A stretch of DNA of 64,000 bases from an uncultured Actinomycetes bacterium (GCA_963751565.1 CAVVVA010000014.1:40139-104138), one strand, 5' to 3'. Shown: positions 4,616 through 62,992, counted from the first letter of the stretch. Notes: generated by a model from the sequence alone, not told the origin. Program-made: numbers and translations.

Positions 4616-4753
4616 GAAGCGGGGACCGATCCTGTCTGAATACAGTCTATGCGTCCCGGCCGCGCCGCGCCACCGTGCGCGCGCTGCGCCGCGCCGCCGT
4701 GCGGGCCTCGCGCGGCGCCACCGTGCGGGCCTCGCGCGGCGCCCGAGGCGTTC

Positions 4754-7729
4754 TCACGGCAGGAGCCGCTCGGCGAGGAACTCGAGGGGATGCCGCGCGG
4801 GGCGGCCGGCGAGGTCGCCGATCTGCGACCGGCACGACGTGCCGGTCGCCAGCACCGCGTCGCGCCGGCCCGCCGCCCGCACGGCCGGCAGCAGCGCCCG
4901 CTCGGCCACCTGCACGCTCAGCTCGTAGCGCTCCTTGCGGTAGCCGAACACGCCCGACATGCCGCAGCAGCCGGCATCGAGCACGGTGAGCTCGAGGTCG
5001 GGCACGCAGCGCAGCGCCCGAAGCGTGTCGTCCGCGCCGAACACCGCCCGCTCGTGGCAGTGCGGGTGGACCACGGCGCGGCCGCCGGCGGCGAAGCGCA
5101 GCCGGCCCGCGACGGCGGCGTCGGCTACCAGCGCGAGCCCGGAGCGCGCCGCCGCGGCCACCTCGGCGGCGGCGGCGTCGCCGGGCAGCAGCCGCTCCCA
5201 ATCGTCGCAGACCATCGCCTGGCAGCTCGGCTCGATGAAGACGATCGGCAGCCCCGCCCGGGCGGGCGGCGCGAGCGACCTCGCGGTCGCTCGCGCCGCC
5301 CGCCGCGCTTTGTCGATCATGCCCACCGACAGCATCGTGCGCCCGCAGCAGCCGACGCTGGCGACACTCGGCGTGTGGCCGGCCGCGCGCAGCAGTACCA
5401 GCAGCGCCTCGCCTATGTGCGGCTCCTGGTGTTCGCTGAAGCAGTCGGCGAAGACGATCACGCTGGGGACCGGCCCACGAGTCGTGCCGGGACCCGCGCC
5501 GGAGATCGCGCCGGGGGTCGCGCCGGGAGTAGTACCGGTCGCCCCGCCGGCAGACGCGCCGGCAGACGCGCCGCGCGCGGCCGCACGCGCCTGCTCCCGG
5601 CTGGAGAGCGAGCGCCGCGCGATCGCCGGCACGGAGCGGCGGGGGTCGACCCCGACGAGCGGCATGACGGCGCGGGCCGCAGGCCCGCGCCCCAGCGCGT
5701 TGACGAGCGGCGCGACCGGCGCCGCCAGCCTGGTGAGCCGGCGCAGGTCGGCGACGGCGCGCGCCAGCAGCGGCGTCCCCCGGCGGGAGTTGACCTCGGC
5801 GAGCCACTCGGCCTTGAGCGCCGCCATGTCGACCGCCGCCGGGCACTCGGCGCTGCAGGCCTTGCAGGCGAGGCAGGTGCCCAGGACGTCTTCGAACTCA
5901 CCCTCACCGAGCAGCGAGAGCGGCACCGCGCCGGCCACGACCGCCTGTAACAGGTTGGCGCGCGCGCGGGTCGTGTGCCACTCGTTGCGCGAGACCGCCG
6001 CCGGCGGGCACATGGTGCCCACCTGCTTCTTGCACAGGCCGGCGCCGAAGCAGCGCTCGACGGCCAGGTCGAACCCGCCCTCGCGGGCATAGGAGAGCCG
6101 CGGCCGCCACCCTGAGCGGTCGCGGTAGGCCGCGCCGAAGCGCAGGTTCTCGGCTACCTGCGGTCCTTCGACCTTGCGTCCCGGGCTGAGCAGGCGGCGC
6201 GGATCGAACAGGTCCTTGAGCGCCACGAACTCGGCGTAGAGCTCGGGCCCGAACAGCTCCGGGTTGAACCACGAGCGCGAGAAGCCGTCGCCGTGCTCGC
6301 CCGAGAAAGCGCCGTGCCGCTCGGCGACGAGACGCCCGACCTCGCGGGCGATGACCTCGAGCTTGCCGACGCCCACGGCCGTCTTCAGGTCGAGCATCGG
6401 GCGCACGTGCATGCAGCCGGCCGAGGCATGACCGGTAAACGAGGCGCGCACGCCGTGCGCCGCGACGACGCGCTGGAACTCGTCGACGTAGTCGGCGAGG
6501 CGCTCGGGAGGCACGGCGGTGTCCTCGACAAATGAAGCGGGACGATCCACGCCGGGCGCCCCCATGAGCAGGGGCAGCGAGGCGCGACGCAGCTCCCAGG
6601 CCTCATCCACCTCGTCCGGATCGGCGAAGAAGACCGTAGCCGAGGCGCCGAGGTCGGAGGCCACGCCGCGCAGGCGGTCGAGACCGGCCAGACCCTCGTC
6701 GCGCGTGCCCTGATATTCGACGAGCAGCACCGCCGGGTCGCCCCCGTCGAGGATCGCCCCGAGGCGCGTGAAGCGCCGCAGGTTGGGCGAGCGGCGCAGC
6801 GGCACCAGGTCGATGAGCTCGACCGCCGACGGCCCCGTGGGGAGGATGACCAGGTTCGCTTCGAGCGCGGCGCGCAGGCTCGCGAAGGTGAGCGCGGCCA
6901 GCGGCCGCGCCTGCGGCCGCTCGTCGAGCTGCACCTCGAGCTCGGTGAACAGCAGGAGCGTCCCCTCCGAACCGGCGAACAGGCGAGCCAGGTTGGGCTC
7001 GGGCTCGATCAGCTCGGGCAGGTTGTAGCCGGAGACGCGGCGGGCCGTGCGCGGGAAGTCGGCGGCGATGCGGGCGCGCGAGCGCGCCCGCATCGCCGCC
7101 AGGCCATCGGCGAGCGGCCCGCCGCCGGCCCCCGTCACGCCGCTGCGCAGGTCGCCGCCGGCGCACGGTCCGAACGCGGCCGCCTCTCCCCCGGCGAGCA
7201 CGCCCTGCACCCTCAGCAGCTTGTCCTTGGTCTCGCCGTAGACGATCGAGCGCGAGCCCGAGGAGTTGTTGCCGGCCATGCCGCCGATCGTCGCCTGCTC
7301 GACTGTCGAGGTGTCGGGCCCGAACTCGAGGCCGAAGGGCGCCGCGGCGCGGTTGAGAGCGCCCTGCACGACGCCCGGCTCGACTCTCGCGACCCGCCGC
7401 TCGGGGTCGATCTCGACGATGCGGTCGAGGTGAAAGCAGTCGATTGCGATGCCGGCGCCCAGGGTCTGCCCGGCGAGGCTCGTGGCCGCGCCCCGCACGC
7501 ACAGCGGCACGTCGTGGCGGGCCGCGACCTCGGCGGCCACGGCCAGGTCGTCGACCGACCTGGCCACGAGCACCGCGTCGGGCAGCACCCGGTAGATCGA
7601 GGCGTCGGTCGAGTAGAGCCAGCGCGACAGCGGGCTCGTGCGGACCTCGCCGGCCACGTGGCGAGCGAGGTCGGCGGCCGCGGCGAGGCCCCGCTTGCTC
7701 GGGGCTGGAATGCCGGCGTCGGCGCTCAT
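4754..7729 (-). CDS. Fused FAD-linked oxidase (GlcD/D-lactate dehydrogenase-like) plus Fe-S/CCG-domain (GlcF/GlpC-like) oxidoreductase, ~990 aa
   Basis: N-terminal FAD_binding_4-type sequence (RWLYSTDASIYRVLPDAVLVARSVDDL...GAATSLAGQ). Central CxxCxxCxxxCP ferredoxin-like motif (CLACKACSAECP). C-terminal Cys-rich CCG-like repeats. Start MSADAGIP at 7729; the upstream 91 codons of the ORF read through the repeat element. Confidence 0.85.
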   Translation of the reverse strand: MSADAGIPAPSKRGLAAAADLARHVAGEVRTSPLSRWLYSTDASIYRVLPDAVLVARSVDDLAVAAEVAARHDVPLCVRGAATSLAGQTLGAGIAIDCFHLDRIVEIDPERRVARVEPGVVQGALNRAAAPFGLEFGPDTSTVEQATIGGMAGNNSSGSRSIVYGETKDKLLRVQGVLAGGEAAAFGPCAGGDLRSGVTGAGGGPLADGLAAMRARSRARIAADFPRTARRVSGYNLPELIEPEPNLARLFAGSEGTLLLFTELEVQLDERPQARPLAALTFASLRAALEANLVILPTGPSAVELIDLVPLRRSPNLRRFTRLGAILDGGDPAVLLVEYQGTRDEGLAGLDRLRGVASDLGASATVFFADPDEVDEAWELRRASLPLLMGAPGVDRPASFVEDTAVPPERLADYVDEFQRVVAAHGVRASFTGHASAGCMHVRPMLDLKTAVGVGKLEVIAREVGRLVAERHGAFSGEHGDGFSRSWFNPELFGPELYAEFVALKDLFDPRRLLSPGRKVEGPQVAENLRFGAAYRDRSGWRPRLSYAREGGFDLAVERCFGAGLCKKQVGTMCPPAAVSRNEWHTTRARANLLQAVVAGAVPLSLLGEGEFEDVLGTCLACKACSAECPAAVDMAALKAEWLAEVNSRRGTPLLARAVADLRRLTRLAAPVAPLVNALGRGPAARAVMPLVGVDPRRSVPAIARRSLSSREQARAAARGASAGASAGGATGTTPGATPGAISGAGPGTTRGPVPSVIVFADCFSEHQEPHIGEALLVLLRAAGHTPSVASVGCCGRTMLSVGMIDKARRAARATARSLAPPARAGLPIVFIEPSCQAMVCDDWERLLPGDAAAAEVAAAARSGLALVADAAVAGRLRFAAGGRAVVHPHCHERAVFGADDTLRALRCVPDLELTVLDAGCCGMSGVFGYRKERYELSVQVAERALLPAVRAAGRRDAVLATGTSCRSQIGDLAGRPARHPLEFLAERLLP

Positions 7730-7774
7730 CGCGTCCAAGCATAGACGCCCGTGCGAGGGCGGCGCTACCGGGGC

Positions 7775-8060
7775 CGCTCGGGCGGGGGAGGCCTCAGGTC
7801 GGAGCTGCTCGGGAGGCGCTCCGGGCGGGGTGAGGGCCTCAGGTCGGAGCTGACTCGGGAGGCGCTCCGGGCGGGGTGAGGGCCTCAGGTCGGAGCTGTC
7901 TCGGTCAGCTGCGCACCTCACCTTGGGGGGGCTCCACCTCGCAGGCCGACCTTCGACCCTCGCCCCGCACTTCGCTTGGGCCATCCGACCTTCGACCCTC
8001 ACCCCGCCCTTCGCTCCCGTCAGCGGAACCTCGAACCTCGCCCCGCCCTTCGCTCAGGCA
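7775..8060. repeat. Composite repeat element IR-L: three copies of a ~45 bp unit A (GGGAGGCGCTCCGGGCGGGGTGAGGGCCTCAGGTCGGAGCTG), then about three copies of a ~40 bp unit B (CGACCTTCGACCCTCACCCCGCCCTTCGCT...)
   Basis: Tandem periodicity is visible directly. The reverse complement matches 10350-10675 almost base for base over ~230 bp. Confidence 0.8.
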
Positions 8061-8182
8061 GCGCGTGGCGACCTCGCGCCGTTGCTCCGCACCCGGCGAG
8101 GCCGGACGGGCCCGCGGCAAACTTCGCGTGCGAAGACGTGCGCCGCTCACCGGTGCAGCGGCTGTGCTAGAGTGCCGCCGAA

Positions 8183-8603
8183 GTGACGACGCTCGCCCAT
8201 ACGACGGCGCCTGCGACGGACCGCCGCGAACGATTCGCCGCCGGTCGCGCCCGTGAGAGGGCGCAGGCGGCGGGCGGCGTGCGGCTCTGGCCACACGACG
8301 CCGCCCGCGGCGTGGCGCTCTTCTTCGGCCTGTTCTCCTTCCTCAATCTGATCGGCGAGCTGCGCGCGCCGGGCTTCAACGAGAACATCTGGTGGCTCGA
8401 CCTGCGACCGCTGCCGGCAGCCGCGACGGCCATCATCCTGGCGCTCGCGGGGCTCCTGCTGGTGTGGTGGGGGCTGAGGCCGGCGGCGGCGCGGGTGGCG
8501 TCGCGTCGCGACGCCGGTCACGGCCTGCGTTCTCAGCGTCGTTGCGCTGCGCAACGGCGCCGCGTTCTACCGTGCCTGGCAGCTCGGCCAGATCCGGCCG
8601 TGG
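8183..8603 (+). pseudogene. N-terminal TM-helix region (FFGLFSFLNLIGEL...; IILALAGLLLVWWGL), apparently the frameshifted 5' part of the downstream DUF218 gene
   Basis: The frame-2 ORF has a protein-like hydrophobic N-terminus for about 100 codons, then degenerates into Arg-rich noise. Frame 0 upstream of ATG 8604 reads as membrane protein (ACVLSVVALRNGAAFYRAWQLGQIRPW) right after a stop at 8475. Confidence 0.3.
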
Positions 8604-9266
8604 ATGCCGCTGCCGTTGTCGTTCGTGCTGGCGGCTGCGCTGCTGTACGTCGCGTGGGCCGCGGCGCGGCCCGCGCCGCTGCACCGCAGCCGCCGCACGC
8701 CGGTGTTGGTCGCCGCCGTTCTCGTCCTGTGCGGCATCCTCTTTCCGCTGGCGCAGCAGGTCTTCTTCGGCAAGACCGACTACGTCCGACCGGCCCAGGT
8801 GGCGATCGTCTTCGGCGCCCAGGTGCACAGCGACGGACGGGCTTCCGTCGCCCTCGTCGACCGCGTGCGGACGGCTGCGCAGCTGTACGAAGCGGGCCTC
8901 ACCCAGCGCCTGCTCATGTCCGGGGCTCAAGGTCCGGGTGAGCCGGTCAACGAAACGACGGTGATGCGCTCACTGGCGATCGGCTTCGGCGTCCCGGCGT
9001 CGGCGATCGAGGTCGATCCCCACGGCGTCAACACGGACGCGACGGTGCGCGACACGGTGCCGCTCATGCGCGCCGCCGGCTATCGGCAGGTCGCCGTCGT
9101 GAGCGACTTCTTCCACCTGCCGCGCGTCAAGCTCGCCTACCAGCGGCTCGGCTACGACGTCATCACCGTGCCGTCGCGCGCCCGCCGCATACCGCAGACC
9201 ACCAAGCTCGTCCTGCGCGAGATCCCCGCGTTCTGGGTGTACTACCTGCGGGCCGTCCTGGGCTGA
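8604..9266 (+). CDS. DUF218 domain membrane protein (SanA/YdcF/ElyC family)
   Basis: Two N-terminal TM segments, then a DUF218-like core (VAIVFGAQVHSDGRAS...LLMSGAQGPGEPVNETTVMRSLAI...GYRQVAVVSDFFHLPR). Confidence 0.75.
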   Translation: MPLPLSFVLAAALLYVAWAAARPAPLHRSRRTPVLVAAVLVLCGILFPLAQQVFFGKTDYVRPAQVAIVFGAQVHSDGRASVALVDRVRTAAQLYEAGLTQRLLMSGAQGPGEPVNETTVMRSLAIGFGVPASAIEVDPHGVNTDATVRDTVPLMRAAGYRQVAVVSDFFHLPRVKLAYQRLGYDVITVPSRARRIPQTTKLVLREIPAFWVYYLRAVLG

Positions 9267-9399
9267 CGAGAGTACTGACGCGCCCGGTCCGGCAGCAGGT
9301 GAGTGGAACCTCGCCGCTTCTCGCCCTCGTCCTGGCTTGAGCCCGAACCGGCGGGGTCTCTCTTTGGAGAGCCGTGTCGTCGGCTCGTGTCGTTGTGCT

Positions 9400-10116
9400 C
9401 TACAGGTCGAACAGCCGCACCTCGGGCAGGTGTCGCGTCAGCTCGGTCAGCCCGCCGGTGACGAGCAGCAGTCCGCACCCGGCCAGCACGATTCCCGAGA
9501 CGATCCGCACCGTTCGGTAGTGGCGCTTGAGAAAGCCCAGGCGGGCCATCGCCCAGTCGTAGGCGAGCGCGGTGAGCAGGAAGGGGACACCGAGCCCGGC
9601 CGAGTACAGCGCAAGCAGCAGCGCGCCAGCCAGCGCGTCGCCGCCCGAGCCGGCCAGCACGAGGATGCTGCCCAGCACGTAGCCCACGCAGGGCGTCCAG
9701 CCCAGACACACCACGGCCCCCGTGATGAAGGCGCCGATCACGCCCGCCCGCGGCGAGGGCGACCAGCGCAGCCCCGGCAGACGCACCACGTCGGCGACTG
9801 TCAGGCCGGCCACGATCAGGAAGACCCCGCCGACGATGGTCAGCAGGCGGCGCTCGTCGGTGAGCAACGACCCGGCGGCGCCGGCCGCGGCGCCCAGCGC
9901 CACGAAGACGGCCGTGAAGCCGGCCACGAACGCAAGCGCCGTGCCCACGACATTGCGGCGGCGGCGGTCGAGGTCGGCGACGGCGACCCCCGAGACATAC
10001 GACAGGAAGGCCGGCACGAGCGGCAGCACGCAGGGTGAGGCAAACGACACGGCGCCGGCGGCCAGAGCCAGGACGACCGCCGCCGGTGAGAGCGAGTGGA
10101 CGGCGGCGGCGATCAT
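9400..10116 (-). CDS. ccdA: Cytochrome c-type biogenesis / thiol-disulfide transporter CcdA (DsbD TM-domain family)
   Basis: Six-TM protein with the two conserved Cys motifs (FASPCVLPLVPAF and LGWTPCVGYVLGSIL). Start MIAAAVHS at 10116. Confidence 0.85.
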   Translation of the reverse strand: MIAAAVHSLSPAAVVLALAAGAVSFASPCVLPLVPAFLSYVSGVAVADLDRRRRNVVGTALAFVAGFTAVFVALGAAAGAAGSLLTDERRLLTIVGGVFLIVAGLTVADVVRLPGLRWSPSPRAGVIGAFITGAVVCLGWTPCVGYVLGSILVLAGSGGDALAGALLLALYSAGLGVPFLLTALAYDWAMARLGFLKRHYRTVRIVSGIVLAGCGLLLVTGGLTELTRHLPEVRLFDL

Positions 10117-10349
10117 CGTCCGGCGCCCCGCGCGGCATTGCGACCACCCGGCCGGGACACGACAAGGCGTGCCGCCGGCGCAGAGACCGATGGCTGCCCG
10201 CCGATGTCCCGCCACCCGATTCTCACGACCCTCTCCTGGCATCCGGCCGGGCTTGGCCCGGCTCCGCACTCGTCTCGTATCGGCTCGTCGCGCGCCGGAC
10301 TCGACCACGAGAGCCGGCCGGCCGCGGGCGGCAGCGATCGCCGAACACG

Positions 10350-10675
10350 GTGTGAGCGAAGGGCGGGGTGAGGGTCGAGGTTCGGATGGCTTGAGCGAAG
10401 GGCGGGGCGAGGGTCGAGGTTCGCATGGCTGACCGCAGGGAGAGGTGCGGGTCGGGGATCGGATGGCTTGAGCGAAGGGCGGAGCGAGGTTCGAGGTTCC
10501 GCTGACGGGAGCGAAGGGCGGGGTGAGGGTCGAAGGTCGGCCTGCGAGGTGGAGGCCCCGCAAGGTGAGGTGCGCAGCTGACCGAGACAGCTCCGACCTG
10601 AGGCCCTCACCCCGCCCGGAGCGCCTCCCGAGTCAGCTCCGACCTGAGGCCCTCACCCCGCCCGGAGCGCCTCCC
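10350..10675. repeat. Composite repeat element IR-R: about four copies of unit B, then two copies of unit A, in inverted orientation relative to IR-L
   Basis: CGAAGGGCGGGGTGAGGGTCGAGGTTCG... repeated 4x; GCTCCGACCTGAGGCCCTCACCCCGCCCGGAGCGCCTCCCG repeated 2x. Confidence 0.8.
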
Positions 10676-10702
10676 GGTTTGACTTGGCGAGCGCCCGCGT
10701 CA

Positions 10703-10724
10703 TAATACCCTGCAGGGTATTATT
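10703..10724. promoter_or_regulatory. Perfect 22 bp AT-rich palindrome ATAATACCCTGCAGGGTATTAT; candidate operator/promoter ~25 bp upstream of the FmdB-like gene
   Basis: Perfect dyad symmetry. It is locally AT-rich within a 72% GC background and contains CATAAT/TATTAT -10-like hexamers. Confidence 0.5.
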
Positions 10725-10749
10725 CCGGCGAACCAGGGAGTGAAGGCGC

Positions 10750-10953
10750 GTGGCCACCTACGACCTTGTCTGTCTCGAGTGCGGCCACATCTTCGAGCTC
10801 TTCGTCCAGGGGTTTCTGAAGAACGAAGACCGCCAGTGCCCGAGCTGCGGCTCGTTCAAGACCCGGCAGAAGTTCTCGTCCTTCCTCACCAACGCCTCGA
10901 GCGGCTCGTCGTCCGGCGCGTGCGACGCGCCCGCCGGCGGCGGCTTCACCTGA
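10750..10953 (+). CDS. FmdB-family zinc-ribbon protein (putative regulatory, CxxC...CxxC)
   Basis: MATYDLVCLECGHIFE...RQCPSCGS matches the FmdB/zinc-ribbon family signature. The C-terminus is Gly/Ser-rich. Confidence 0.8.
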   Translation: MATYDLVCLECGHIFELFVQGFLKNEDRQCPSCGSFKTRQKFSSFLTNASSGSSSGACDAPAGGGFT

Positions 10954-11028
10954 GGAGCCTGACCGGGCGCGTCGCGCCCGCCCCGACACAGCGTCCCAGC
11001 GCCCCCGCCGACCTGCTACGATGAACCC

Positions 11029-12030
11029 ATGAAGGTCCTCGTCACCGGCGGCGCCGGCTACATCGGCAGCGTGATCGCCGCCCGCCTCGTCGCCGCCGGC
11101 CACGCCGTCACCGTGTACGACGACCTGTCGCGCGGCCATCGTGCGGCAGTGCCTCCCGGCGCGACGCTCGTGAAGGCCGACATCCGCGACGCAGACAGTG
11201 TCGCGGCGGCGCTCACGAGCGGCGGCTGCGAGGCGATCGTGCACATGGCGGCCCTCGCGGAGGTCGCGGAGTCGGTCGCCTTTCCCGCGCGCTACCACGA
11301 CGTCAACGTCGCGGGCACGCAGGCGGTTCTTCAGGCCGCGCTGCGCGCCGGCGTGTCGCGCCTCGTCTTCTCGTCGACGGCGGCGGTCTACGGCGCGCCC
11401 GAGCGCGTTCCCATCGACGAAGACTCTCCGCTCGCGCCGGCCAACCCCTACGGCGAGACCAAGCTCGCCGCCGAGCGCCTGCTGGGCGAGGCGGCCGCCG
11501 CGAGCGGCGGCCGCCTCGCCACCATCGCGCTGCGCTACTTCAACGCGGCCGGCGCCGACGGGCCGCGCGGCGAGGATCACGCTCCCGAAAGCCACCTCGT
11601 CCCCCTGGCGCTCACCGCGGTGCGCGACGGTACGACACTCAGGATCTTCGGCGACGACTACCCCACGCCCGACGGCACCTGCGTGCGCGACTACGTTCAC
11701 GTGAGCGATTTGGCGGCGGCGCACGTGGCCGCGCTCGAGCGCCTGCCACAGGCGGCCGGGGCGTTCAACCTCGGCACCGGCAGCGGCAGCTCCGTGCTCG
11801 AGGTGCTGCGGGCGGTCGCGGCCGCAACCGCCCGCGATCCCGCCGTCGAGCACGCCTCGCGGCGGGCCGGCGACCCACCGGTGCTGGTGGCGTCGAACGA
11901 CCGCGCCCGTCGCGCGCTGGGCTGGCGACCGCGACGGCGGCTCGACGGCATCGTCGCCGACGCCTGGGCGTGGATGTCCGCCCATCCGCGCGGCTACGAC
12001 GACAGAGGTGGCGAGCAGGGAGCGACTTAG
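11029..12030 (+). CDS. galE: UDP-glucose 4-epimerase
   Basis: Rossmann motif MKVLVTGGAGYIGS, catalytic YGETK, and extended-SDR GalE signatures throughout. Confidence 0.9.
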   Translation: MKVLVTGGAGYIGSVIAARLVAAGHAVTVYDDLSRGHRAAVPPGATLVKADIRDADSVAAALTSGGCEAIVHMAALAEVAESVAFPARYHDVNVAGTQAVLQAALRAGVSRLVFSSTAAVYGAPERVPIDEDSPLAPANPYGETKLAAERLLGEAAAASGGRLATIALRYFNAAGADGPRGEDHAPESHLVPLALTAVRDGTTLRIFGDDYPTPDGTCVRDYVHVSDLAAAHVAALERLPQAAGAFNLGTGSGSSVLEVLRAVAAATARDPAVEHASRRAGDPPVLVASNDRARRALGWRPRRRLDGIVADAWAWMSAHPRGYDDRGGEQGAT

Positions 12031-12743: not shown

Positions 12744-13370
12744 TTGCGGAAGCACTACGCCGTCGCCGGCATCGTCGTAGCTGTCCTGGTCGCCGTCCTC
12801 ATCGTCGTCGCCGGCTCGAGGTCGTCTGGTGACGGGACGGACTCCACCGCTCACGAGACGAGCGCCACCGCCCTTCCGACCGGTCACCCGTCCGCCGCCG
12901 CCGGCGCCGCATCTCCGACCGACTACGTCGCGATGGTCAAGCTGCTCGAGGCGCGCCACGCCAAAGACCCCTCCAACGTCAAGACCGCCATGGATCTGGC
13001 CAACGCCTACCTCATGACCGAGCAGCCCACCAAGGCCCGGCGGCTCTATGCCAGCGTGCTGGCGAGCGATCCGGGCAACGAGACCGCCAAGGCGCAACTG
13101 GCCATGGCGCTCCACGCCGACGGCCACGACGACCAGGCTCTCAGCCTGCTGAACGGCGTCCTGCAGACCGACCCGCGCAGCCAGCTCGCCCACTACAACC
13201 TGGGGACGCTCTATTTCTCGGAGCAGAAGTCCGACTGGGCGAGGGACGAGTGGAAGAAGGCGGCGGCGATCGACCCCACGTCGGGCATCGGCAAGTCGGC
13301 CCAGAACTTCGTCAACCTGATGGACGACAGTACCGGCAGCCCGCACCCGAGCGACACGAAGAGCGAGTAG
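12744..13370 (+). CDS. Membrane-anchored TPR-repeat protein
   Basis: TTG start with AAAGGA 11 nt upstream. N-terminal TM (AVAGIVVAVLVAVLIVVAG). TPR-like repeats (AMDLANAYLMTEQPTKARRLYASVLASDPGNETAKAQLAMAL...AHYNLGTLYF). Confidence 0.7.
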   Translation: MRKHYAVAGIVVAVLVAVLIVVAGSRSSGDGTDSTAHETSATALPTGHPSAAAGAASPTDYVAMVKLLEARHAKDPSNVKTAMDLANAYLMTEQPTKARRLYASVLASDPGNETAKAQLAMALHADGHDDQALSLLNGVLQTDPRSQLAHYNLGTLYFSEQKSDWARDEWKKAAAIDPTSGIGKSAQNFVNLMDDSTGSPHPSDTKSE

Positions 13371-22241: not shown

Positions 22242-22601
22242 CTACTTGCGGTATGAGTCGAGGTAGGCCTGCAGGGGCTCGACGCGGCCACCCATGATCT
22301 TCTCGATCACGTCGTCGAGGATGCCCTTGGCGACGTCGAGGTCGGACACGATGGCGCGATAGATGTAGCCCGAGGGCTCCTTGTCCTGCTCGAGCAGGCC
22401 CTTGACGTGCAGGTTGCGCAGCACGCTCATGACCGTCGTGTAGGCGATGCGACGGCGCAGGCGCAGCTCCTCGTAGACGTCGCGCACCTTCACGTCGCCC
22501 TTGTCCCACACGATGCGCAGGATCTCGGCCTCGAGCCAGCCGAGGCCGGTGAGGTCGCGGCTGCGGCTCTTCTTGGCCCATCTCACGTAGTCGTCACTCA
22601 T
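22242..22601 (-). CDS. BlaI/MecI/CopY-family transcriptional repressor
   Basis: LGWLEAEILRIVWDKGDVKVRDVYEEL...IAYTTVMSVLRNLHVKGLL is a winged-helix penicillinase-repressor family pattern. GGAGGA Shine-Dalgarno before ATG 22601. Confidence 0.85.
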   Translation of the reverse strand: MSDDYVRWAKKSRSRDLTGLGWLEAEILRIVWDKGDVKVRDVYEELRLRRRIAYTTVMSVLRNLHVKGLLEQDKEPSGYIYRAIVSDLDVAKGILDDVIEKIMGGRVEPLQAYLDSYRK

Positions 22602-22835
22602 GAATCCTCCGACGGTCACACTCAGAAGCTGGCGAGCCGACCGGCGGCGGCCGTGGCGACGGCGGAACGTGTCGGACGTCGGGAAACGGCCGAAGCTCCC
22701 GCCCCACGCGATCCTGGGCGACCCGGGCCCTACTCTATCCACAGGCTCGCAGGCCCGCAACCGGGGGGGTGGGGCAGGAGGCCACGACAGCGCCTCGTAC
22801 TTAGAACGGACTCGTGGGATGCCGATACATGTCAA

Positions 22836-24989
22836 GTGCCCAGTAAAGCAAGCTCGTTGACCGATACCACGCCAGAACCGACCAGTGACTACGCCCTCGC
22901 CTGCGAGCTGGGAGCGTCTGTCACGTCTTCCCTGGTGCTCGAGGACGTCCTGGCCACAGTGGCTCGGCGCATCGCCGAAGCGCTCGACGTCTGGGAGTGC
23001 GACCTCTTGGAGTACTACGCCGAGAGCGAGACCATCGTCGCCGCGGCTTGCTGGGCGCGTCAGATGACCCCCGAGGACTACGCCTGGGTGGGGACGCACA
23101 TGAGCTTGAGCGAGCGACCGACCTACCGGCCGCTGTTCCTGGCGCGGGAGTACTCCGAGGCCTACGCCGATGACGCGGTCAAGGACCCCCTCGACGGCAG
23201 ACTCATGGAGGAGTGGGGCGAGCTCGCGACGCTGGGAGTGCCGCTCGTCTTCGAGGACACAGTGATCGGCTGCTTCACGCTTGTCGAAAAGGAACGGCTG
23301 CGCCACTTCAGCGAGGAAGACAAGCGGCGCGCCTCGCTCCTGGCCATCCCGGCCGCCGTGGCCATCCACAACGCCCGCATCTACCGCCAGGAGGAGGAAC
23401 AGAACCGCCATCTCGCGTCACTGATCGACTCGAGCCGGGCGCTGACCTCGGCGGTGGTCCTGGAGAACATCCTCGACATCGTCTGCCGGAAGGCAGCGGA
23501 AGCGCTCGACACCAACGAGTGCGTCATCTACGAGTACGACGCGGCCCACGACGCGATCGTCTGCAAGGCGCTCTACGATTCCGCCGGCGGGGAGGACCAA
23601 AGCGACAGTCTGGGCGTGGTCTACTCACTCGACGAGTACCCGTCCGACCGCGAGATTCTGAGACGCGGCGAGGTGATCGAAGAGTCGCTGTCGGATGAGA
23701 GTCTGCCGGTCGATGTGCGCGATTCGATGGAGCAGTGGGGCGAGATGTCGTGTCTCAACGTGCCCCTCATCTACGACCGCGAACCGGTCGGCATCCTGGT
23801 GCTCTGTGAAACCGCCCGCGAGCGACACTTCACGCCTGAAGAAGCCGAGCTGGCCAAGGGCCTCGGCGAGCAGGCCGCAGCGGCCATCCGCCACGCGCAG
23901 CTCTACCGGCGCCAGGAGCGTGCCAACAAGCGGCTCCTGGCCCTGCTCGAGACCAGCCGCGTCCTGGTTGCCTCACTGGATACAGAGACGGTGCTCGCCG
24001 AGATGCGAGACGAGGTCGCCGGCATGTTCGCGGTGCCGCAGGATGCTGTCGGCATCGTCTTGCGCGACGCCGCCGGAGAGTTCCGGCCGTTCATCCGCGC
24101 CGACAGCGGCGACGCTCCGGGCGGACCCCCCGGTCCCCAACCGATCGAGCTCGACGAGCTGCAACGCCGGGTGGTCGCGAAGCGCGGCCCGGCACAGGAC
24201 CGCGACGGCGACAGCGCTCGTCTGCTGGTGCCTCTGGTGCTCGACGATGTGGCCGAAGGGCTCGTCGAGGTCCGCGCGCCCCGAGTCGACCGCGTGAGCG
24301 ACGAGGAGATCGGCCTGGTGCAGGTCCTCACGACGCAAGCGGCCGCGGCCATGGTCAATGCGCGCCTGTACCAGACGCTCGAGGAGCAGGCGATCACCGA
24401 CGGCCTCACCGGGCTCTGCAACTACCGCCACTTCTACGAGCGCCTCGAGGCCGAGTGCGCCCGCGCCCGCCGCTACGGGCTGCCGCTATCGCTGCTGATG
24501 ATCGACATCGACGACTTCAAGCGATTCAACGACCGCTTCGGCCACCCTGTCGGCGACCTCGTTCTCACCGAGGTGGGGAAGATCCTGAGTTCGCAGCTCC
24601 GGCGCAATGTCGACCTTGCGGCCCGCTACGGCGGCGAGGAGTTCGCGGTGCTCCTTCCCAACACGCCACAGGACGGCGCCCGCGTGGTCGGCGACCGCCT
24701 GCTGCGCGAGATGACCAAGGTCTCCGCCGCCGCCGACCTGCCGCCGGAGCAGGCCGACGGCGCCCGCAAGGTGGGCGAGCGCATCCGCCAGAGCATCGCC
24801 GCCGCCGATCTCGTCGCGGTCCGCGACGGCGGTGGCGACGACGACGACACCCACGTGACCGTGAGTGTGGGCATCGCGGCCTTCCCTGGTTCGGCCGGCA
24901 GTCCGAACGAGCTGGTGAGGGACGCCGACGAGGCTCTGTACCTGGCGAAGCGACTCGGCAAGAACCGTGTCGAGGTGCACGGTGCCTGA
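22836..24989 (+). CDS. Cytoplasmic 3xGAF-GGDEF diguanylate cyclase
   Basis: Three GAF-like repeats, each ending in an ...HNARLY/HAQLY-type helix. C-terminal GGDEF (RYGGEEFAVLL). Start is uncertain: GTG 22836 or TTG 22857. Confidence 0.85.
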   Translation: MPSKASSLTDTTPEPTSDYALACELGASVTSSLVLEDVLATVARRIAEALDVWECDLLEYYAESETIVAAACWARQMTPEDYAWVGTHMSLSERPTYRPLFLAREYSEAYADDAVKDPLDGRLMEEWGELATLGVPLVFEDTVIGCFTLVEKERLRHFSEEDKRRASLLAIPAAVAIHNARIYRQEEEQNRHLASLIDSSRALTSAVVLENILDIVCRKAAEALDTNECVIYEYDAAHDAIVCKALYDSAGGEDQSDSLGVVYSLDEYPSDREILRRGEVIEESLSDESLPVDVRDSMEQWGEMSCLNVPLIYDREPVGILVLCETARERHFTPEEAELAKGLGEQAAAAIRHAQLYRRQERANKRLLALLETSRVLVASLDTETVLAEMRDEVAGMFAVPQDAVGIVLRDAAGEFRPFIRADSGDAPGGPPGPQPIELDELQRRVVAKRGPAQDRDGDSARLLVPLVLDDVAEGLVEVRAPRVDRVSDEEIGLVQVLTTQAAAAMVNARLYQTLEEQAITDGLTGLCNYRHFYERLEAECARARRYGLPLSLLMIDIDDFKRFNDRFGHPVGDLVLTEVGKILSSQLRRNVDLAARYGGEEFAVLLPNTPQDGARVVGDRLLREMTKVSAAADLPPEQADGARKVGERIRQSIAAADLVAVRDGGGDDDDTHVTVSVGIAAFPGSAGSPNELVRDADEALYLAKRLGKNRVEVHGA

Positions 24990-27094
24990 GGTCCGACTCG
25001 ATCCGGTGGCCGCCGGCGCCGATCCCTTCAAGACAGTGCTCGAGGTCAGCGCCACGCTGACCGCCGACCTCGACCTGCCGACCCTCCTCGCGACCGTGGC
25101 GCATCAGATCGGCGAGGCCATGCGCGCCACCTCCTGTGACATCACCGACTACGACGCGGCCGCCGAGACGCTCACCTACGCCGCCGTATGGGCAGTCGAG
25201 ATGACTCCCGAGGACGAAGCGTACGTCGGCACGGTGACGGCGCTCGCCGATCGCCCCGCGCGCCTGCGCGTGGTGCGCGAGCGCGACGTGAGCGGAGTAC
25301 TACCTCGACGACCCCGGTCTCGACCCGACCGAGCGGGAGATCATGGAAAAGTGGGGCGAATCGACGGCGCTGGAGGTCCCGCTCGTGTTCGCCGACGAGG
25401 TCATCGGCATCCTCGGCGTGGTCGACATCGACCCCCGGCGCAGGTACGACGATACAGACAAGGCGCTGCTGCAGGCGCTCGCGGTGCCGGCCGCCATCGG
25501 CATCCACAACGCGCGCGCCTTCGCCGCCTCCCGCGAACGTCGCCGCCAACTCGGCGGCCTGCTCGACGCGAGCCGCGCCGTCACCTCGACGTTCGGGCTC
25601 GATGAGACGCTCGCGGTGGTGGCTCGCGAGGCTGCCGAACTGGTGGCGTGCTCGGAGTGCCTGATCTACCAGTACGACGTCGAGCGCCACGGCATGGTTT
25701 GGCGCGCCCACTACCATCGCGAGGCAGTGTCCCGGCGAAACGACGCGCTCGGCGCCTTCTTCCCGACAAGAGACTGGCGTGCCGACTACGACATCATGAT
25801 GAGCGGCGAACTCAGCATCGACCACGTCGACGACCCGCTCCTCACCGATGCGGAGCGCGCCGACATGCGCGAGCACGGCGAGCTGAGCGCGATGACCGTC
25901 CCGTTGCGCTTCGGCGACACGCCCATCGGCATCCTCTACCTCGCCGAGACGTCGCGGCGGCGCGAGTTCGGCGCCCATGAGATTGAGCTGGCGTCGGCCT
26001 TCGCCGAGCTGGCCAGCGCCGCCATCCACAACGCCCGCCTCATCGACGTTCAGGAGCGGCAGAGCGAACGTCTGCTGGGCCTCTTCGCTGCCGGTCGAGC
26101 CATCACCGGGACGACGGTCATCGACGACCTGGTGCTCGCCACGTGCGACCAGATGGCTCGGGTGCTGGCCGAGGACTCCGCCACAGTGCGCGTGTGGCTG
26201 CGCGACCAGGAGGGCGTGTTCGCGCCGTGGGGTGAAGGTGCCGGATCGAGAGCCGCGCCGGCCCTCCCACCGGCCGCGGAGCAGGCCGTCGCGACCCTGG
26301 CTGCTGCCCAGGAGCCGTGCAGGCCCGGCGCGCGGCTCGTGCTCCCCTTCGCCGCGCGCGGCCACGCCGAGGGGTTCATGGAGATCGTCGACGAGAGCCG
26401 GCGCGCCTTCCGCGAGGATCTGGTGGAGCTGCTGCAGATCATCGCCAACCACGCGGCGGTGGCCGTCGAGAACGCGCGACTGTATGCCCGCGTCAAGGAG
26501 CAGGCGATCACCGATGGCCTCACCGGGCTCTGCAACCACCGCCACTTCTACGAGCGCCTCGAGGCCGAGTGCGCCCGCGCCCGCCGCTACGGGCTGCCGC
26601 TCTCGCTGCTGATGATCGACATCGACGACTTCAAGCGATTCAACGACCGCTTCGGCCACCTGCGCGGGGATCAGGTGCTCCGTGACGTGGCCGAGATTCT
26701 CAGGGCCGACACGCGCCGCAATATCGACCTGCCGGCTCGCTACGGCGGCGAGGAGTTCATGGTGATCCTGCCGCACACCGTGCGCGAGGGCGCCGGCGTT
26801 GTCGGCGACCGTATCCACCGCCGGGTCGCCGGGCTGGGCGGCGAGTCCCCTGAAGACGGCCGAGTCATCCCGCCGCCGGGCCAGGGCGCCGTGGAGGTCG
26901 GTGAGCGCCTGCGCCGCGACATCGAGAAGACGGCGCTCGCGACCCCGGCGGGTGTGTCCAGCATCACGGTGAGCGTCGGTGCGGCCTCCGTCGTTGCCGC
27001 CACGGCGGCGCCGGAGCACATCGTGAGCTGCGCGGACAAAGCGCTCTACCTCGCCAAACGCGCCGGCAAGAACCGCGTCGAGGTCTACGGCTGA
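24967..27094 (+). CDS. Paralogous 3xGAF-GGDEF diguanylate cyclase with an apparent +1 frameshift near 25293
   Basis: ORF 24967..25605 carries GAF-1 until ...RERDVS, then noise. ORF 25343..27094 resumes with ...EYYLDDPGLDPTEREIMEKWGE in the next frame. Comparison with the upstream paralog (EYSEAYADDAVKDPLDGRLMEEWGE) indicates one extra G in agcGgagtac. GGEEF is intact (RYGGEEFMVIL). Confidence 0.7.
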
Positions 27095-27485: not shown

Positions 27486-28630
27486 GGTCTCTGGGCCCCT
27501 CCGCCGACGTGGTAGTCACGTTCGATCCTCGCCACGATCGCCCAGCCGAGCCGCGCGGCCCCGGGCAGCGTCATGTGGACGCCGTCGGCCTGGCGCATGA
27601 GCTGCAGGTCACCGTGGGCGTCGCGCAGATAAGGGGAGTAGGCGCCCTTCGGCGTAGCGAACATCGACCAGGTATCGACGTAGACGACCCCGGGCCGCGT
27701 GGCCGCCTCCCGCTGGAAGATCGTGTCGAGCACCTTGACCGTGCGGCTGAACGACTTGGAGCCCATGATCGGCAACCCGACCCAGTACACGCGCGTGGCG
27801 CCGCCCCGCACCAGGGTGTCCATGGCCTGGCCGACCCGCTGAGCGTACAGCGCGTCCCAGGCGGGCGATTCGCTGGCCAGCACGCGGCCGTCCAGGTCGA
27901 CCGGCTGGGCGTCGTTGGCGCCAAAGAACGCCACCGCCACGTCGGGCTGCAGCACCCGCGACACGTAGGCCAGCCGTCGCGGCCAGTCGAAGTAGTCGGG
28001 ACGGCTCAGGCCGGTCGAGATGTGATAGTCGAGGGTCGCCCTCATCACGCCGCTCTCCTGCGCGTACTGCACGACCTGGGCGCCCGAGGTCTGGGCCATC
28101 GAGTCGCCGCCGACCCAGATGCGCAAGGGCCGTTCGGCGGTGGGCGTCGGGAGGGCCGTCGTGGCCGCACTCGGCGCGCCCAGGTCGCGCAGCCCGCTGC
28201 CCGACTCCTCCGCCGGACCGCCGCGTCCCAGGAGCGCCAGGGCGGCTTCGGCGGGGCGGTCCAGGAACACGAAGTGGCTGACTGCCGCCACGGGACGGAT
28301 GGCCGCGACGGCGAGCGTCCGCTGCGCCCCGAAGGGCATCGCTCTGGCGGTGCGCTGGATGCTCGCCGCGTTCAGGAACAGCGCGAGGCCCAACCCCAGG
28401 AGCCCGGCGACCAGCACGCTGCCGGCCGGCACGAGCCGCCGGCCGGCGGCGGTCGCCGCGTGCCGCCGCTGGAGGGCGGGCCCCACCGGCGAAGCGGGTC
28501 CGACCGGCGGAGCGGTCCCAGCCGACGGTGCGGGCCCGACCGACGGAGCGGGCCCGATCGACGGAGCGGCCGGCTCGGCCACCGGATCGAACCAGTTGTC
28601 GCCACCGTCGTCGTGCCCGCGCCCGTCCAT
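27482..28630 (-). CDS. SGNH/GDSL-like hydrolase, DUF459 family (AlgX/AlgJ/PatB-type partner of MBOAT), membrane-anchored
   Basis: Start MDGRGHDD at 28630 overlaps the MBOAT stop (TGATG). Pro-rich GPAPSVGPAPSAG repeats, one TM helix, then a GDS block (IWVGGDSMAQ) and a DUF459-like C-terminus. Confidence 0.7.
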   Translation of the reverse strand: MDGRGHDDGGDNWFDPVAEPAAPSIGPAPSVGPAPSAGTAPPVGPASPVGPALQRRHAATAAGRRLVPAGSVLVAGLLGLGLALFLNAASIQRTARAMPFGAQRTLAVAAIRPVAAVSHFVFLDRPAEAALALLGRGGPAEESGSGLRDLGAPSAATTALPTPTAERPLRIWVGGDSMAQTSGAQVVQYAQESGVMRATLDYHISTGLSRPDYFDWPRRLAYVSRVLQPDVAVAFFGANDAQPVDLDGRVLASESPAWDALYAQRVGQAMDTLVRGGATRVYWVGLPIMGSKSFSRTVKVLDTIFQREAATRPGVVYVDTWSMFATPKGAYSPYLRDAHGDLQLMRQADGVHMTLPGAARLGWAIVARIERDYHVGGGAQRP

Positions 28631-53185: not shown

Positions 53186-54619
53186 TCAGGCGTGCTCGGT
53201 GCCGGCGAGCGCGAGCCACACCCACAGGGCGCCGCCCAGGCAGAGCGCGGCGGCGGCGGCGAAGAGCACCGGAGCGCCGAGGCGCGCAAAGACGAAGCCG
53301 CCGATCGACGGGCCGACGATCGCGCCGATGCTCCAGCCGAAGGTCTGCGTCACGGCTTGACCGGTCGACAGCAGGCGCCGCGGCACGAGGCGTCCGACGA
53401 TCACCACGACACCGACGTAGCTGAGCGCGAAGGCCACACCGTCGCCGGTGGCCACGAGCGCCAGCGCAAGCGGCGAGTGCAGGAACGACCAGCACAGGAA
53501 CACGAGAGCGTAGGTCAGCGCACCGGCCACGAACATGGACCGCAGGCCGAAGCGCCGGCCCAGGCCGCCGCTCCAGCGCATCACCGGGATCTCGATCAGC
53601 GCGGCAAGGCCGGCGGCCAGGCCGACGAGGAACGGCCCGCCCCCGGTGCCCACGATCCGCAGGCTCACGAAGGCCAGCGCCGCGTAGCCGCCGACGCTCA
53701 CGATCACCATGCCGACCACGAACGAGGCGAGCCCGGGCGACTCCCGGAACACGTCGCCCAGGGCGCCGAAGCGCGACTCGGAACGCACCGGCGCCGGCGC
53801 ACCGGGCGGCAGGCGCAGCGTCCACAGGCCAAAGGCGATCGTGCCGGCGGCGTAGAGCGGCAGGACCGGGGCGAGGCCGACGACCTGGTACAGGGCGCCG
53901 AAGCCGACGACCGCGACACCCCAGCCGAGGCTCGCCCACAGCCTGATGCGGCCGTACTCGCTGATGCGCTCCTCGCCCAGATAGGCGACGGCGAGCGCGT
54001 CCGACAGCGGCGCCCCCGGCGACGAGCACATCGACATGAGCACCGCCACGAGCAGGATCGCCCAGAACGCCGAGCCGCTGACGGCGAGCGCCAGCGCGAA
54101 CAGCGCGGTCGCCGCCGACGACACGACAAGGACCCGGGCCGCGCCCAGCCGGGTGTCGGCCAGGTGGCTCCACAACGGCGCCGTCGAGGCCCCCACAGCG
54201 GCCGTCACGGCGAACACGAGGCCGATGCTCTGCGGCGTCAGGCCGCGGTCGCGCAGGAGCAGCGCGAAGAACGGGATGAACGCCGAGCCGCCGGCGCCGG
54301 CGATCAGAAAGAGCGTCCGCAACGACCACAGGCCGCCGAGGTCGGGCTTGACCCGGCGACGCCGACCGCCGAGGTCGGGCTTGACCCGACGACGCCGACC
54401 GCCACAACGGGGGCGCGCAGCCGGTTCGTCGCTCCCCTGATCGGCCTTGCGGGCTCCGTCGGCTCTGTCGGCCTGGCCGGCCTCACCGGCCTTGGCGGCC
54501 GTGGCGGTCTCGTCGGTCTCGTCGGCCCTACCGGCCTGATCTGCGTTGTCGGCCTTGTCGGCCTCGCCGTGTTGTGCGGCCCGGTCGCCCATAGGCTCGC
54601 ATCCTAGCAGCTGGGTCAC
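53186..54619 (-). CDS. MFS transporter with repetitive N-terminal extension
   Basis: 12-TM MFS core from about LWSLRTLFLIAG onward. The N-terminal ~95 aa are low-complexity (ADKADNADQAGRADETDE...) plus a duplicated RRRRVKPDLGG. Start is uncertain. Confidence 0.8.
   Translation of the reverse strand: MTQLLGCEPMGDRAAQHGEADKADNADQAGRADETDETATAAKAGEAGQADRADGARKADQGSDEPAARPRCGGRRRRVKPDLGGRRRRVKPDLGGLWSLRTLFLIAGAGGSAFIPFFALLLRDRGLTPQSIGLVFAVTAAVGASTAPLWSHLADTRLGAARVLVVSSAATALFALALAVSGSAFWAILLVAVLMSMCSSPGAPLSDALAVAYLGEERISEYGRIRLWASLGWGVAVVGFGALYQVVGLAPVLPLYAAGTIAFGLWTLRLPPGAPAPVRSESRFGALGDVFRESPGLASFVVGMVIVSVGGYAALAFVSLRIVGTGGGPFLVGLAAGLAALIEIPVMRWSGGLGRRFGLRSMFVAGALTYALVFLCWSFLHSPLALALVATGDGVAFALSYVGVVVIVGRLVPRRLLSTGQAVTQTFGWSIGAIVGPSIGGFVFARLGAPVLFAAAAALCLGGALWVWLALAGTEHA
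54331..54400. repeat. Direct ~35 bp tandem duplication (GCCGAGGTCGGGCTTGACCCG(A/G)CGACGCCGACC) inside the MFS 5' region, followed by degenerate 6-9 bp GGCC(T/G)(T/C)GTC-type tandem repeats to about 54600
   Basis: Seen directly in the sequence; encodes RRRRVKPDLGG x2. Confidence 0.6.
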
Positions 54620-62377: not shown

Positions 62378-62992
62378 CTACGCCAGCCCGAGGCGCGCCA
62401 GCTCGTCCTCGTTGAAGCCGAAGTAGTGCGCCGTCTCGTGGAGCACGGTGACCCGGATCTGCCGCCTGAGCTCGCGCTCGTCGGCGCTGGCCCGCTCGAT
62501 GTTGCGCGCGAAGAGGTGGATGGTGTCGGGATAGCCCGGGCCGAGGGTCGACTGGCGAGGCATCGACAGGCCGTGAAAGAGCCCCAGGATGCGCGGGTCG
62601 GTGCCGTCGCGCACCATCTCCTCGGAGGGGCGGTCGTCGGCGATCAGCGGCACGTTGCGCAGACGCTCGAGCACCTCGGGCGGCAGCTCGTCGAGGGCGT
62701 CCTGGACGACGCGCGCGAACTCGGCCGCGCCGAGTCCGCGCGCGTCGTCGTCGCCCTCGACGTCGAGCCGCCGCGCCTCGAGCCACTCGGCGACCATGCC
62801 GCCGCGGTCGCCCATGTCCTCGCAGGCCACACCCAGCAGATGATGAAGGTCGGCGCGGTCGTCGAGGTCGGCCACGCCGCGCGCGAGCAGCGGCCGCAGC
62901 AGGCCGGCGACCTTGTCGGCGGCGCCCGCCTCGAGCAGGTCCCAGGCGCGTTCGATGGCTCGATCGATCTCGGCAGGCGATGGCGCAGACAC
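62378..62992 (-). CDS. Zincin-like metallopeptidase-family protein (HExxH)
   Basis: C-terminal VLHETAHYFGFNEDEL motif; N-terminal helical region. Confidence 0.7.
   Translation of the reverse strand: MSAPSPAEIDRAIERAWDLLEAGAADKVAGLLRPLLARGVADLDDRADLHHLLGVACEDMGDRGGMVAEWLEARRLDVEGDDDARGLGAAEFARVVQDALDELPPEVLERLRNVPLIADDRPSEEMVRDGTDPRILGLFHGLSMPRQSTLGPGYPDTIHLFARNIERASADERELRRQIRVTVLHETAHYFGFNEDELARLGLA

Follow-up and report, generated by a model that had tools for sequence, protein, structure and literature searches.

The question raised by this locus is why a 2.3-kb segment with two genes, one encoding a DUF218 protein and the other a CcdA protein, is bracketed by two long and nearly identical inverted repeats. 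The locus lies in a stretch of 64,000 nucleotides from an uncultured Actinomycetes bacterium (GCA_963751565.1, CAVVVA010000014.1:40139-104138), hereafter called the window, between a gene for an FAD/Fe-S oxidase and an fmdB-galE unit. A preliminary description made from the sequence alone had proposed that the segment might be inverted by homologous recombination between the repeats, that it might be a mobile cassette without a transposase, or that the repeats belong to an intergenic repeat family that happens to be paired in inverted orientation here. The last proposal was essentially right, as the element was found at unrelated loci in related genomes. We consider it probable (roughly 70%) that the repeats are selfish or neutral interspersed hairpin repeats, and that the pair at this locus consists of two separate members of a small dispersed family. 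This interpretation builds on the observed anatomy of the repeats, their conserved hairpin, their occurrence at unrelated loci, the independent conservation of the two arms, the variation in unit number and the similarity of copies within a genome.

An inverted-repeat search showed the inverted copies to be located at 7775-8062 and 10353-10676. Of these, 7810-8060 and 10426-10676 were 88% complementary over 251 nt in a single ungapped register; the longest perfect block between the arms was 116 nt (7810-7925 versus 10561-10676) and the second was 57 nt, which confirms the near-identical inverted flanks reported previously. Within the arm pairing, sub-blocks of 75 nt and about 50 nt matched at 97% and 98%, respectively. 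Both arms were found to be composed of 46-bp A units and 39-bp B units, detected as four arrays by Tandem Repeats Finder, and have the following organization:

7775-8062, minus strand (sense strand): left arm, a composite hairpin-repeat copy with the plus-strand order A units, spacer, B units
7775-7807 (degenerate), 7808-7853 and 7854-7899, minus strand: left-arm A units of 46 bp, plus-strand core GGGCGGGGTGAGGG
7900-7945, minus strand: left-arm central spacer, which makes up the inner stem and loop of the core hairpin (from the alignment; inner helix invariant)
7946-7984, 7985-8023 and 8024-8062, minus strand: left-arm B units of 39 bp, plus-strand core CCCTCRCCCCGCCC
10353-10676, plus strand (sense strand): right arm, a composite hairpin-repeat copy with the order B′ units, spacer, A′ units
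10353-10540, plus strand: right-arm B′ units of 39 bp, starting at 10353, 10392, 10430 (degenerate), 10469 and 10508
10541-10581, plus strand: right-arm central spacer (from the alignment of copies)
10582-10627 and 10628-10673, with 3 further nt to 10676, plus strand: right-arm A′ units of 46 bp

The A array of the left arm (7775-7904) had a period of 46 with 2.9 copies and 94% matches, and its B array (7945-8055) a period of 39 with 2.8 copies. In the right arm, the B′ array (10353-10540) had a period of 39 with 4.8 copies and 77% matches, and the A′ array (10582-10676) a period of 46 with 2.1 copies and 97% matches. The unit counts given earlier thus held for the A units (three on the left, two on the right) and for the approximately three B units on the left, but not for the B units on the right, where about five, one of them degenerate, were found instead of about four.

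A feature missed in the preliminary description is that the A and B units are one motif of about 26 nt (TCCGACCT-N4-CCCTCACCCCGCCC) in opposite orientations, and each arm is therefore self-complementary and itself a composite hairpin. The units run head-to-tail on either side of the array, with a single orientation switch at the centre. The 14-nt core CCCTCACCCCGCCC, with up to two mismatches, occurred 10 times in the 64 kb, every time inside one of the two arms, compared to 2.7 occurrences on average and at most 8 in shuffled sequence. When both arms were compared with the window by blastn-short, no match longer than 16 nt lay beyond the arms, and ORF (open reading frame) calls gave no credible ORF inside the element. 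A B-like stretch at about 9300 (GGAACCTCGCC...), initially regarded as a relic, was dropped as its BLAST match was not significant.

The basic element was defined from the smallest copies outside the window (in the contigs L005, copy b, L014 and L026, described below). It measures about 120 nt and consists of one B′ unit (GAGCGAAGGGCGGGGTGAGGGTCGAAGGTCGG), a conserved spacer of about 55 nt and one A′ unit (CCGACCTGAGGCCCTCACCCCGCCCGGAGCG) that holds an inverted copy of the 26-nt motif of the B′ unit, the whole forming an imperfect hairpin. Tandem amplification is possible for either half (39-bp B, 46-bp A) and gives composite arms of 250-330 bp. The core hairpin of the window showed a folding energy of -83.8 kcal/mol (z = -6.1; z = -5.5 for the opposite strand). 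When A and B units were folded singly as DNA, z values for the two strands ranged from -1.0 to +0.5, and the units are not palindromic; the hairpin requires the pairing of a B′ unit with an A′ unit. For the arms as a whole, folding gave nested hairpins with -85.2 kcal/mol (z = -2.9) on the left and -87.4 kcal/mol (z = -3.2) on the right; the B′ units pair in succession with the A′ units.

Comparison of 11 distinct copies showed the pairing to be conserved. For 39 pairs, 95.3% of cells were paired against 30-44% with the partners slid, six pairs had changed on both sides, and none of 500 shuffles matched the observed values; the alignment used was guided by a covariance model, which biases it toward structure, and an independent MAFFT/RNAalifold run gave identical helices. 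The inner stem AGGTCGG-CCTGCG-GGT / ACC-CAG-CCGACCT (helix 5) was invariant in all 11 copies, even the most diverged, and the outer 16-bp stem varied among copies. The invariant 25-nt sequence of the element is TCGAAGGTCGGCCTGCGAGGTG. An Rfam search of 7000-11500 at E ≤ 1 returned just two chance microRNA matches (about 23 bits versus a gathering score of 100).

Copies at other loci were searched for with an exact pattern in 185,579 GTDB species-representative genomes, with the invariant centre in JGI metagenomes, and with a covariance model (R1) built from 10 copies. The GTDB scan, with a pattern that detects about half of the known copies, matched three contigs (L012, L002 and L005) of the metagenome-assembled genome (MAG) MFD03323.bin.1.10; the five exact matches corresponded to three elements on the three contigs, and a fourth element was present beside one of these. 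The JGI scan matched three contigs (L013, L014 and L015). R1 recovered both window arms as well as copies outside the window, with scores of 104-161 bits. The copies are:

7845-7988, minus strand: R1 match in the window left arm, 147.7 bits
10498-10641, plus strand: R1 match in the window right arm, 161.2 bits
L012: ccdA-fmdB spacer, syntenic with the window right arm; full element (BLAST, R1)
L002: between the ETF-alpha and transketolase genes; full element (BLAST, R1)
L005, copies a and b: two inverted copies separated by 440 bp, with a small ORF on one side and an aldehyde:ferredoxin oxidoreductase (AFOR) gene on the other (BLAST, R1)
L013: JGI contig, adjoining an amidohydrolase gene; minimal copy
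L014 (the same locus as L015): JGI contig, adjoining a pterin-4a-carbinolamine dehydratase gene; minimal copy
L019/L020: oxidase-DUF218 spacer; full element (R1)
L026: ccdA-fmdB spacer; full element (R1)

The window itself contains two copies, both at the oxidase-fmdB locus. Because the GTDB pattern catches only about half of the known copies, we estimate by extrapolation about 10 copies per genome, and not the hundreds that the preliminary description associated with a generic REP-like repeat. R1 gave no copy in 92 kb around the DUF218 homologues of more distant Thermoleophilia (L017, L018 and L021-L025) and none on L027 and L028. Likewise, no match was obtained in a motif scan of viral contigs, nor in a distant blastn search of plasmid and phage collections with the right arm. 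The family is dispersed, low in copy number and limited to uncultured Thermoleophilia of soil and peat that form a narrow clade; the window itself was assigned to Thermoleophilia from the source names of homologues. Further GTDB matches in Rhodobacter, Bifidobacteriaceae, Austwickia, Streptomyces, Brachybacterium, Solirubrobacterales and an alphaproteobacterium comprised only a motif of about 28 nt with no arm and were attributed to chance, as were weak R1 matches at 62683-62767, 37196 and 11461 of the window, which had low scores, occurred on both strands and lay inside coding sequence.

Two side observations were made on repeats in the relatives. A 590-bp galE-Rrf2 spacer of L019 (12590-13090), absent from the window, carries at least three copies of a different repeat of about 40 nt (...CTTCCGGTTTCGCGGAGCGCGTCCCGAGCCCCCGG...) and a long palindrome at about 12840-12970, and looks like another small repeat family. 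L028 (7340-7400, minus strand), a relative in which the hairpin is lacking, contains a lone degenerate A′-like stretch (CCCTTGCCCCAGCCGGAGCGCCCTC) upstream of the oxidase promoter, which may either have remained from a lost copy or represent an ancestral motif near the promoter.

The arms were also found in two further independent assemblies of the same species, L001 (an ENA contig 99.2% identical to the window over 21 kb) and L016 (a JGI contig representing a third strain). When the window was aligned with L001, 96 of the 211 differing columns fell in the left arm, which has three A and three B units in the window and two A and four B units in L001. The right arm contains two A′ units in the window and in L001 but one in L016, where exactly 46 bp (10588-10633) are deleted, and about 16 differences between the window and L001 and/or L016 were clustered in the B′ units at 10363-10435. 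The differences between assemblies in the arms were changes of whole units, and unit number ranged from 1 to about 5 across loci; the left arms of L019 and L020 showed no difference in unit number. The unstable copy number suspected earlier was thus supported by strains with 99% identity. The break in the short-read contig L016 lies 57 nt within the inner edge of the left arm, and both L016 and L013 end at copies of the element.

Copies from one genome resembled each other more closely than those at matching positions of different genomes. The cores of the right and left arms of the window showed 94% identity, and the core of L012 showed 95% identity both to that of L002 and to that of L005a, compared to 88% between the window right arm and L012, which occupy matching positions in two genomes. 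The simplest cause of this pattern is gene conversion, the alternative being recent replacement. In the probable course of events, the family would have dispersed as a non-autonomous element of selfish or neutral nature, perhaps in the form of a single-stranded hairpin acted upon by an enzyme whose gene lies elsewhere; its arrays would lengthen and shorten by replication slippage or unequal exchange, and the two window arms would be held nearly identical by gene conversion.

Several observations weigh against selfish or neutral spread. The family is low in copy number, with about four copies detected in the MAG of one relative and none in the window besides the two arms. Both arms are found at positions conserved across species, and any spread must therefore be old. 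Inverted pairs with the B ends facing inward occur at 2 of about 7 independent loci (the window and L005); in a low-copy family such pairs are unlikely to be due to chance. Neither an empty site nor a parent insertion sequence (IS) or a transposase was found in the loci examined. Finally, the invariance of the inner stem agrees at least as well with a sequence-specific function, for example the binding of a protein, as with a purely selfish element. Besides, no shared direct repeat indicating a target-site duplication was detected at the ends of the copies in the window, L002, L005, L012, L014 and L026, the exact ends of which are uncertain.

The genes and the promoter around the arms of the window are:

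4754-7730, minus strand: FAD/Fe-S oxidase gene (PF01565, PF02913, Fer4_8, CCG), flanking and outside the element
8183-9266, plus strand: DUF218 (SanA/YdcF-like) gene (PF02698)
9400-10116, minus strand: CcdA/DsbD_TM gene, 238 aa (PF02683)
10679-10723, plus strand: fmdB promoter (TTGACT, 16 nt, CATAAT) with a 22-nt perfect palindrome ATAATACCCTGCAGGGTATTAT, outside the element

Upstream of the oxidase ATG (7730), the left arm starts at a distance of 45 bp, and the right arm ends before the fmdB palindrome, as previously described; both arms lie between divergent gene starts. The fmdB promoter (10679-10706) was the sole promoter-like site in the region, and the right arm stops 2 nt before its -35 hexamer. 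The palindrome (10702-10723) overlaps the -10 of fmdB-galE and lies 25 nt beyond the end of the right arm; a related palindrome, TAnTACCC-N4-6-GGGTAT, is kept at the matching place in L012, L019, L026 and L028, and it is probably an operator for some regulator. A gene of the Rrf2 family is located directly downstream of galE. An exact-sequence look-up of the window FmdB protein found no record. In the window (7731-7760), L001, L019 and L028, the oxidase ATG is preceded by TATGCT and 8 nt, which suggests a leaderless transcript or one with a very short leader. In L019 (9680-9700), the last A′ unit provides a TTCACC hexamer 17 nt upstream of the oxidase -10.

Between the arms, only the DUF218 gene and the DsbD_TM/CcdA gene are present, and no recombinase or transposase was detected among the genes called in 1011-22031 of the window or in 30 ORFs examined between 22 and 62 kb, in agreement with the earlier remark that the cargo lacks a recombinase. 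The DUF218 gene of the window is split into two overlapping ORFs (8183-8941 and 8604-9266) by one extra C (8491-8492). This C is absent from L001 and L016, where the gene is intact (called as 328 aa and 360 aa, respectively), and represents either a private frameshift giving a pseudogene or a sequencing error.

Other repeats and genes were noted in the window. A 24-bp tandem repeat of 3.5 copies (4661-4743), unrelated in sequence to the arms, is located in the short spacer that separates the oxidase stop codon from the ferredoxin gene downstream; it has about one unit fewer in L001 and is thus a second variable-number tandem repeat (VNTR) of the operon region. Tandem Repeats Finder detected further arrays at 28476-28569 (18 bp, 5.2 copies) and at 54441-54564 (9 bp, 13.8 copies), the latter at the 5′ end of an MFS transporter ORF (53186-54619). 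Two neighbouring GAF-GGDEF diguanylate cyclase genes (22407-27094), together with another GGDEF gene and a gene for a PilS-like histidine kinase at 15-20 kb, make the neighbourhood rich in genes of cyclic di-GMP (c-di-GMP) signalling.

The strongest alternative, although we regard it as unlikely, is that the element is a selected cis-acting element, in which the hairpin or the GGGCGGGGTGAGGG motif serves as a binding array or structural signal. It could be a terminator or insulator without a U-tract, a stabiliser of mRNA 3′ ends, or a site for a nucleoid protein or regulator. The inner stem without any change in 11 of 11 distinct copies and the retention of both arms at the same positions across species fit such a role, and the element was better conserved than the adjoining non-repeat intergenic DNA when the window was compared with L012. 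The placement of the copies is also suggestive: in L005a, L005b and L013, a convergent gene has its stop codon 1-5 nt away from the A′ end, and in the window, L019, L012, L026 and L002 this end lies directly upstream of a promoter or gene start of the same direction. However, the orientation relative to transcription was mixed among copies, the window arms lie between divergent starts, where a terminator is needless, and no Rfam match was obtained. Moreover, the unit number varies freely between strains, and L027 and L028 contain fmdB/galE or oxidase genes without the hairpin.

Next in order, and likewise unlikely, is a more specific proposal: that the repeats are a hitherto undescribed non-autonomous mobile hairpin element of Thermoleophilia, the inner stem being the recognition site of an enzyme encoded elsewhere (e.g. 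an HUH or other transposase acting on single-stranded DNA), that the element grows as its half-units are duplicated in tandem, and that nearby inverted copies promote gene turnover between the oxidase and fmdB blocks by way of gene conversion and recombination. If true, this would explain both the recurrent inward-facing pairs of the window and L005 and the variable gene content. The sole plausible ORF (93 aa) in the 440-bp segment between the L005 pair showed neither a Pfam match nor HUH-like features.

That the DUF218-ccdA segment is invertible appears improbable. According to this explanation, homologous recombination between the inverted arms would flip the 2.3-kb segment and produce two genomic states. 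RecA-type recombination requires less than the 116 nt and 57 nt of perfect inverted homology present here, and the near identity of the arms suggests that exchange between them does occur; gene conversion without crossover accounts for this similarity, however. The segment had the same orientation in all four assemblies compared, namely the window, L001, L016 and L026 (a relative with 90% identity in GalE), and the genes called over about 10 kb to the left and to the right included no recombinase. Furthermore, the segment contains the upstream regions of both DUF218 and ccdA but not the fmdB promoter, and an inversion would therefore change no connection between a promoter and a gene. The inversion put forward in the preliminary description thus received no direct support, although the homology suffices for RecA.

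A mobile cassette without a transposase, in which the arms would serve as terminal inverted repeats and DUF218 and ccdA would move together as the cargo of a composite element, is very improbable. The geometry is right, with inverted arms placed exactly at gene boundaries, a second inverted pair surrounds the 440-bp segment of L005, and the content of the oxidase-fmdB interval varies among relatives. However, arms and genes were shown to occur separately. In L019 and L020, in which DUF218 is 79% identical, the order is POR operon, oxidase, left arm, DUF218, fmdB, galE and Rrf2, with a gap of just 107 bp between DUF218 and fmdB and without ccdA or the right arm. In L012, the order is ArsR-family gene, ccdA, right arm and fmdB, without DUF218 or the left arm. 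L026 retains ccdA, the right arm and fmdB, and L028 contains the oxidase, ThrE, two small genes and fmdB with no hairpin. DUF218 homologues were found in many other contexts without the repeat, no target-site duplication was visible at the outer ends, no transposase was present among the genes and ORFs examined across the 64 kb, and the right arm was unmatched in the plasmid and phage collections. As arms and genes part company in L019/L020 and L012, each arm has its own history at its own intergenic site, and the intervening genes vary independently. These relatives contradict the cassette proposed earlier; the DUF218-ccdA segment is the DNA between two neighbouring intergenic copies.

The gene content between the POR-oxidase block and the fmdB-galE-Rrf2 block (7731-10749 in the window) was observed to vary across the window, L012, L019, L026, L027 and L028. 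The variants comprised DUF218 and ccdA, DUF218 alone, ThrE and two small genes, ArsR and ccdA, and a peptidase S26. The interval is a local hot spot of gene turnover that is bordered by the repeat in some genomes.

Least probable of all is an assembly artefact from collapsed repeats or chimeric joins: the metagenomic source of the contig, the break of L016 inside the left arm and the 1-bp insertion in DUF218 private to the window would be compatible with it, but the architecture was the same in three independent assemblies (ENA and JGI samples) and recurred at the same positions in other species, and the differences between assemblies were whole units, as real tandem-repeat variation would give. 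Readings as an integron attC site, a retron, a CRISPR array or an ωRNA were rejected, since the associated genes were not among the window genes and ORFs examined and the repeat geometry is wrong.

A dispersed family of hairpin repeats is hereby documented for Thermoleophilia, an abundant but almost uncultured class of soil bacteria for which a literature search found no report of REP or REPIN/RAYT. The arrays provide VNTR markers at strain level, and they break short-read assemblies (L016 and L013); the 116 nt of perfect inverted homology could give rise to rearrangements and misassembly. Together, the invariance of the inner stem and the recurrent placement beside stop codons or directly upstream of promoters offer a way into the question of whether these repeats are functional in high-GC Actinomycetota. 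The current understanding of bacterial interspersed repeats is not overturned by these results.

Among known families, the element can be compared with the REP dimers or REPINs of Enterobacteria and Pseudomonas, which are likewise extragenic and non-coding, with some copies a few nucleotides from stop codons. A REP dimer consists of two inverted GC-rich motifs of about 25 nt separated by a conserved structured spacer of 20-100 bp and forms one large stem-loop (PMC3733652). The element has the same organization, with an inverted motif pair and a spacer giving a single hairpin, and tandem reiteration is found both in REP clusters and here. In contrast, the REP unit of 20-40 bp is itself an imperfect palindrome, which the single units of the element are not, and the tetranucleotide GTAG or CGTC that marks one end in REP families (PMC3733652) was absent from the unit ends in the 10-copy alignment. 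REPs usually exceed 100 copies per genome (PMC2817692), compared to two copies in 64 kb, about four detected in the MAG of the relative and about 10 per genome by extrapolation for the element. Head-to-tail tandem arrays are absent or rare in most REP families (PMC3733652), whereas they dominate in the element. No gene for a RAYT (an IS200/IS605-like tyrosine/HUH transposase) was found in 1011-22031 of the window, among the 30 further window ORFs or beside the other copies examined.

The BOX element of Streptococcus pneumoniae, with the structure boxA-boxB(n)-boxC (PMC3049150), resembles the element in being modular and about 100-300 bp long, in having ends that pair to form a stem-loop, in containing a tandem module of about 40-45 bp that varies by locus and strain, and in having no transposase of its own. 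Unlike BOX, the element amplifies both halves (A and B) and not only a middle module, and its A and B units are inverted versions of one motif. The two also belong to different phyla and differ in base composition, and the copy number of the element is far lower; the likeness is one of architecture only.

The MIRU-type VNTRs of mycobacteria share with the element actinobacterial intergenic tandem units of 40-100 bp, strain-variable unit number and occurrence at several dispersed loci. MIRUs are located inside operons, are oriented with transcription and contain short ORFs coupled to the flanking genes. The arrays described here differ in lying between divergent or convergent genes and in having one orientation switch per array, which creates the hairpin.

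MITEs, or miniature inverted-repeat transposable elements, such as Correia/CREE, ERIC and RUP are similar in being shorter than 500 bp and non-coding, with imperfect terminal inverted repeats, a hairpin and several unrelated intergenic sites. The element falls within the size and inverted-end range of MITEs, with inverted ends of about 25-30 nt, minimal copies of 120-150 bp and composite copies of up to about 330 bp. It differs from MITEs in that no target-site duplication, parent IS or empty-site polymorphism was found, and in that the inner stem and not the termini is most conserved.

The BIMEs of E. coli are, like the element, composite intergenic mosaics of a repeated motif and defined spacers. 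In BIMEs the orientation of the motif alternates at every unit (PMC2817692), whereas the units of the element share one orientation on each side with a single central switch. The element is thus best read as a new family of bacterial interspersed non-coding hairpin repeats with an unusual layout, in which head-to-tail arrays flank one switch of orientation.

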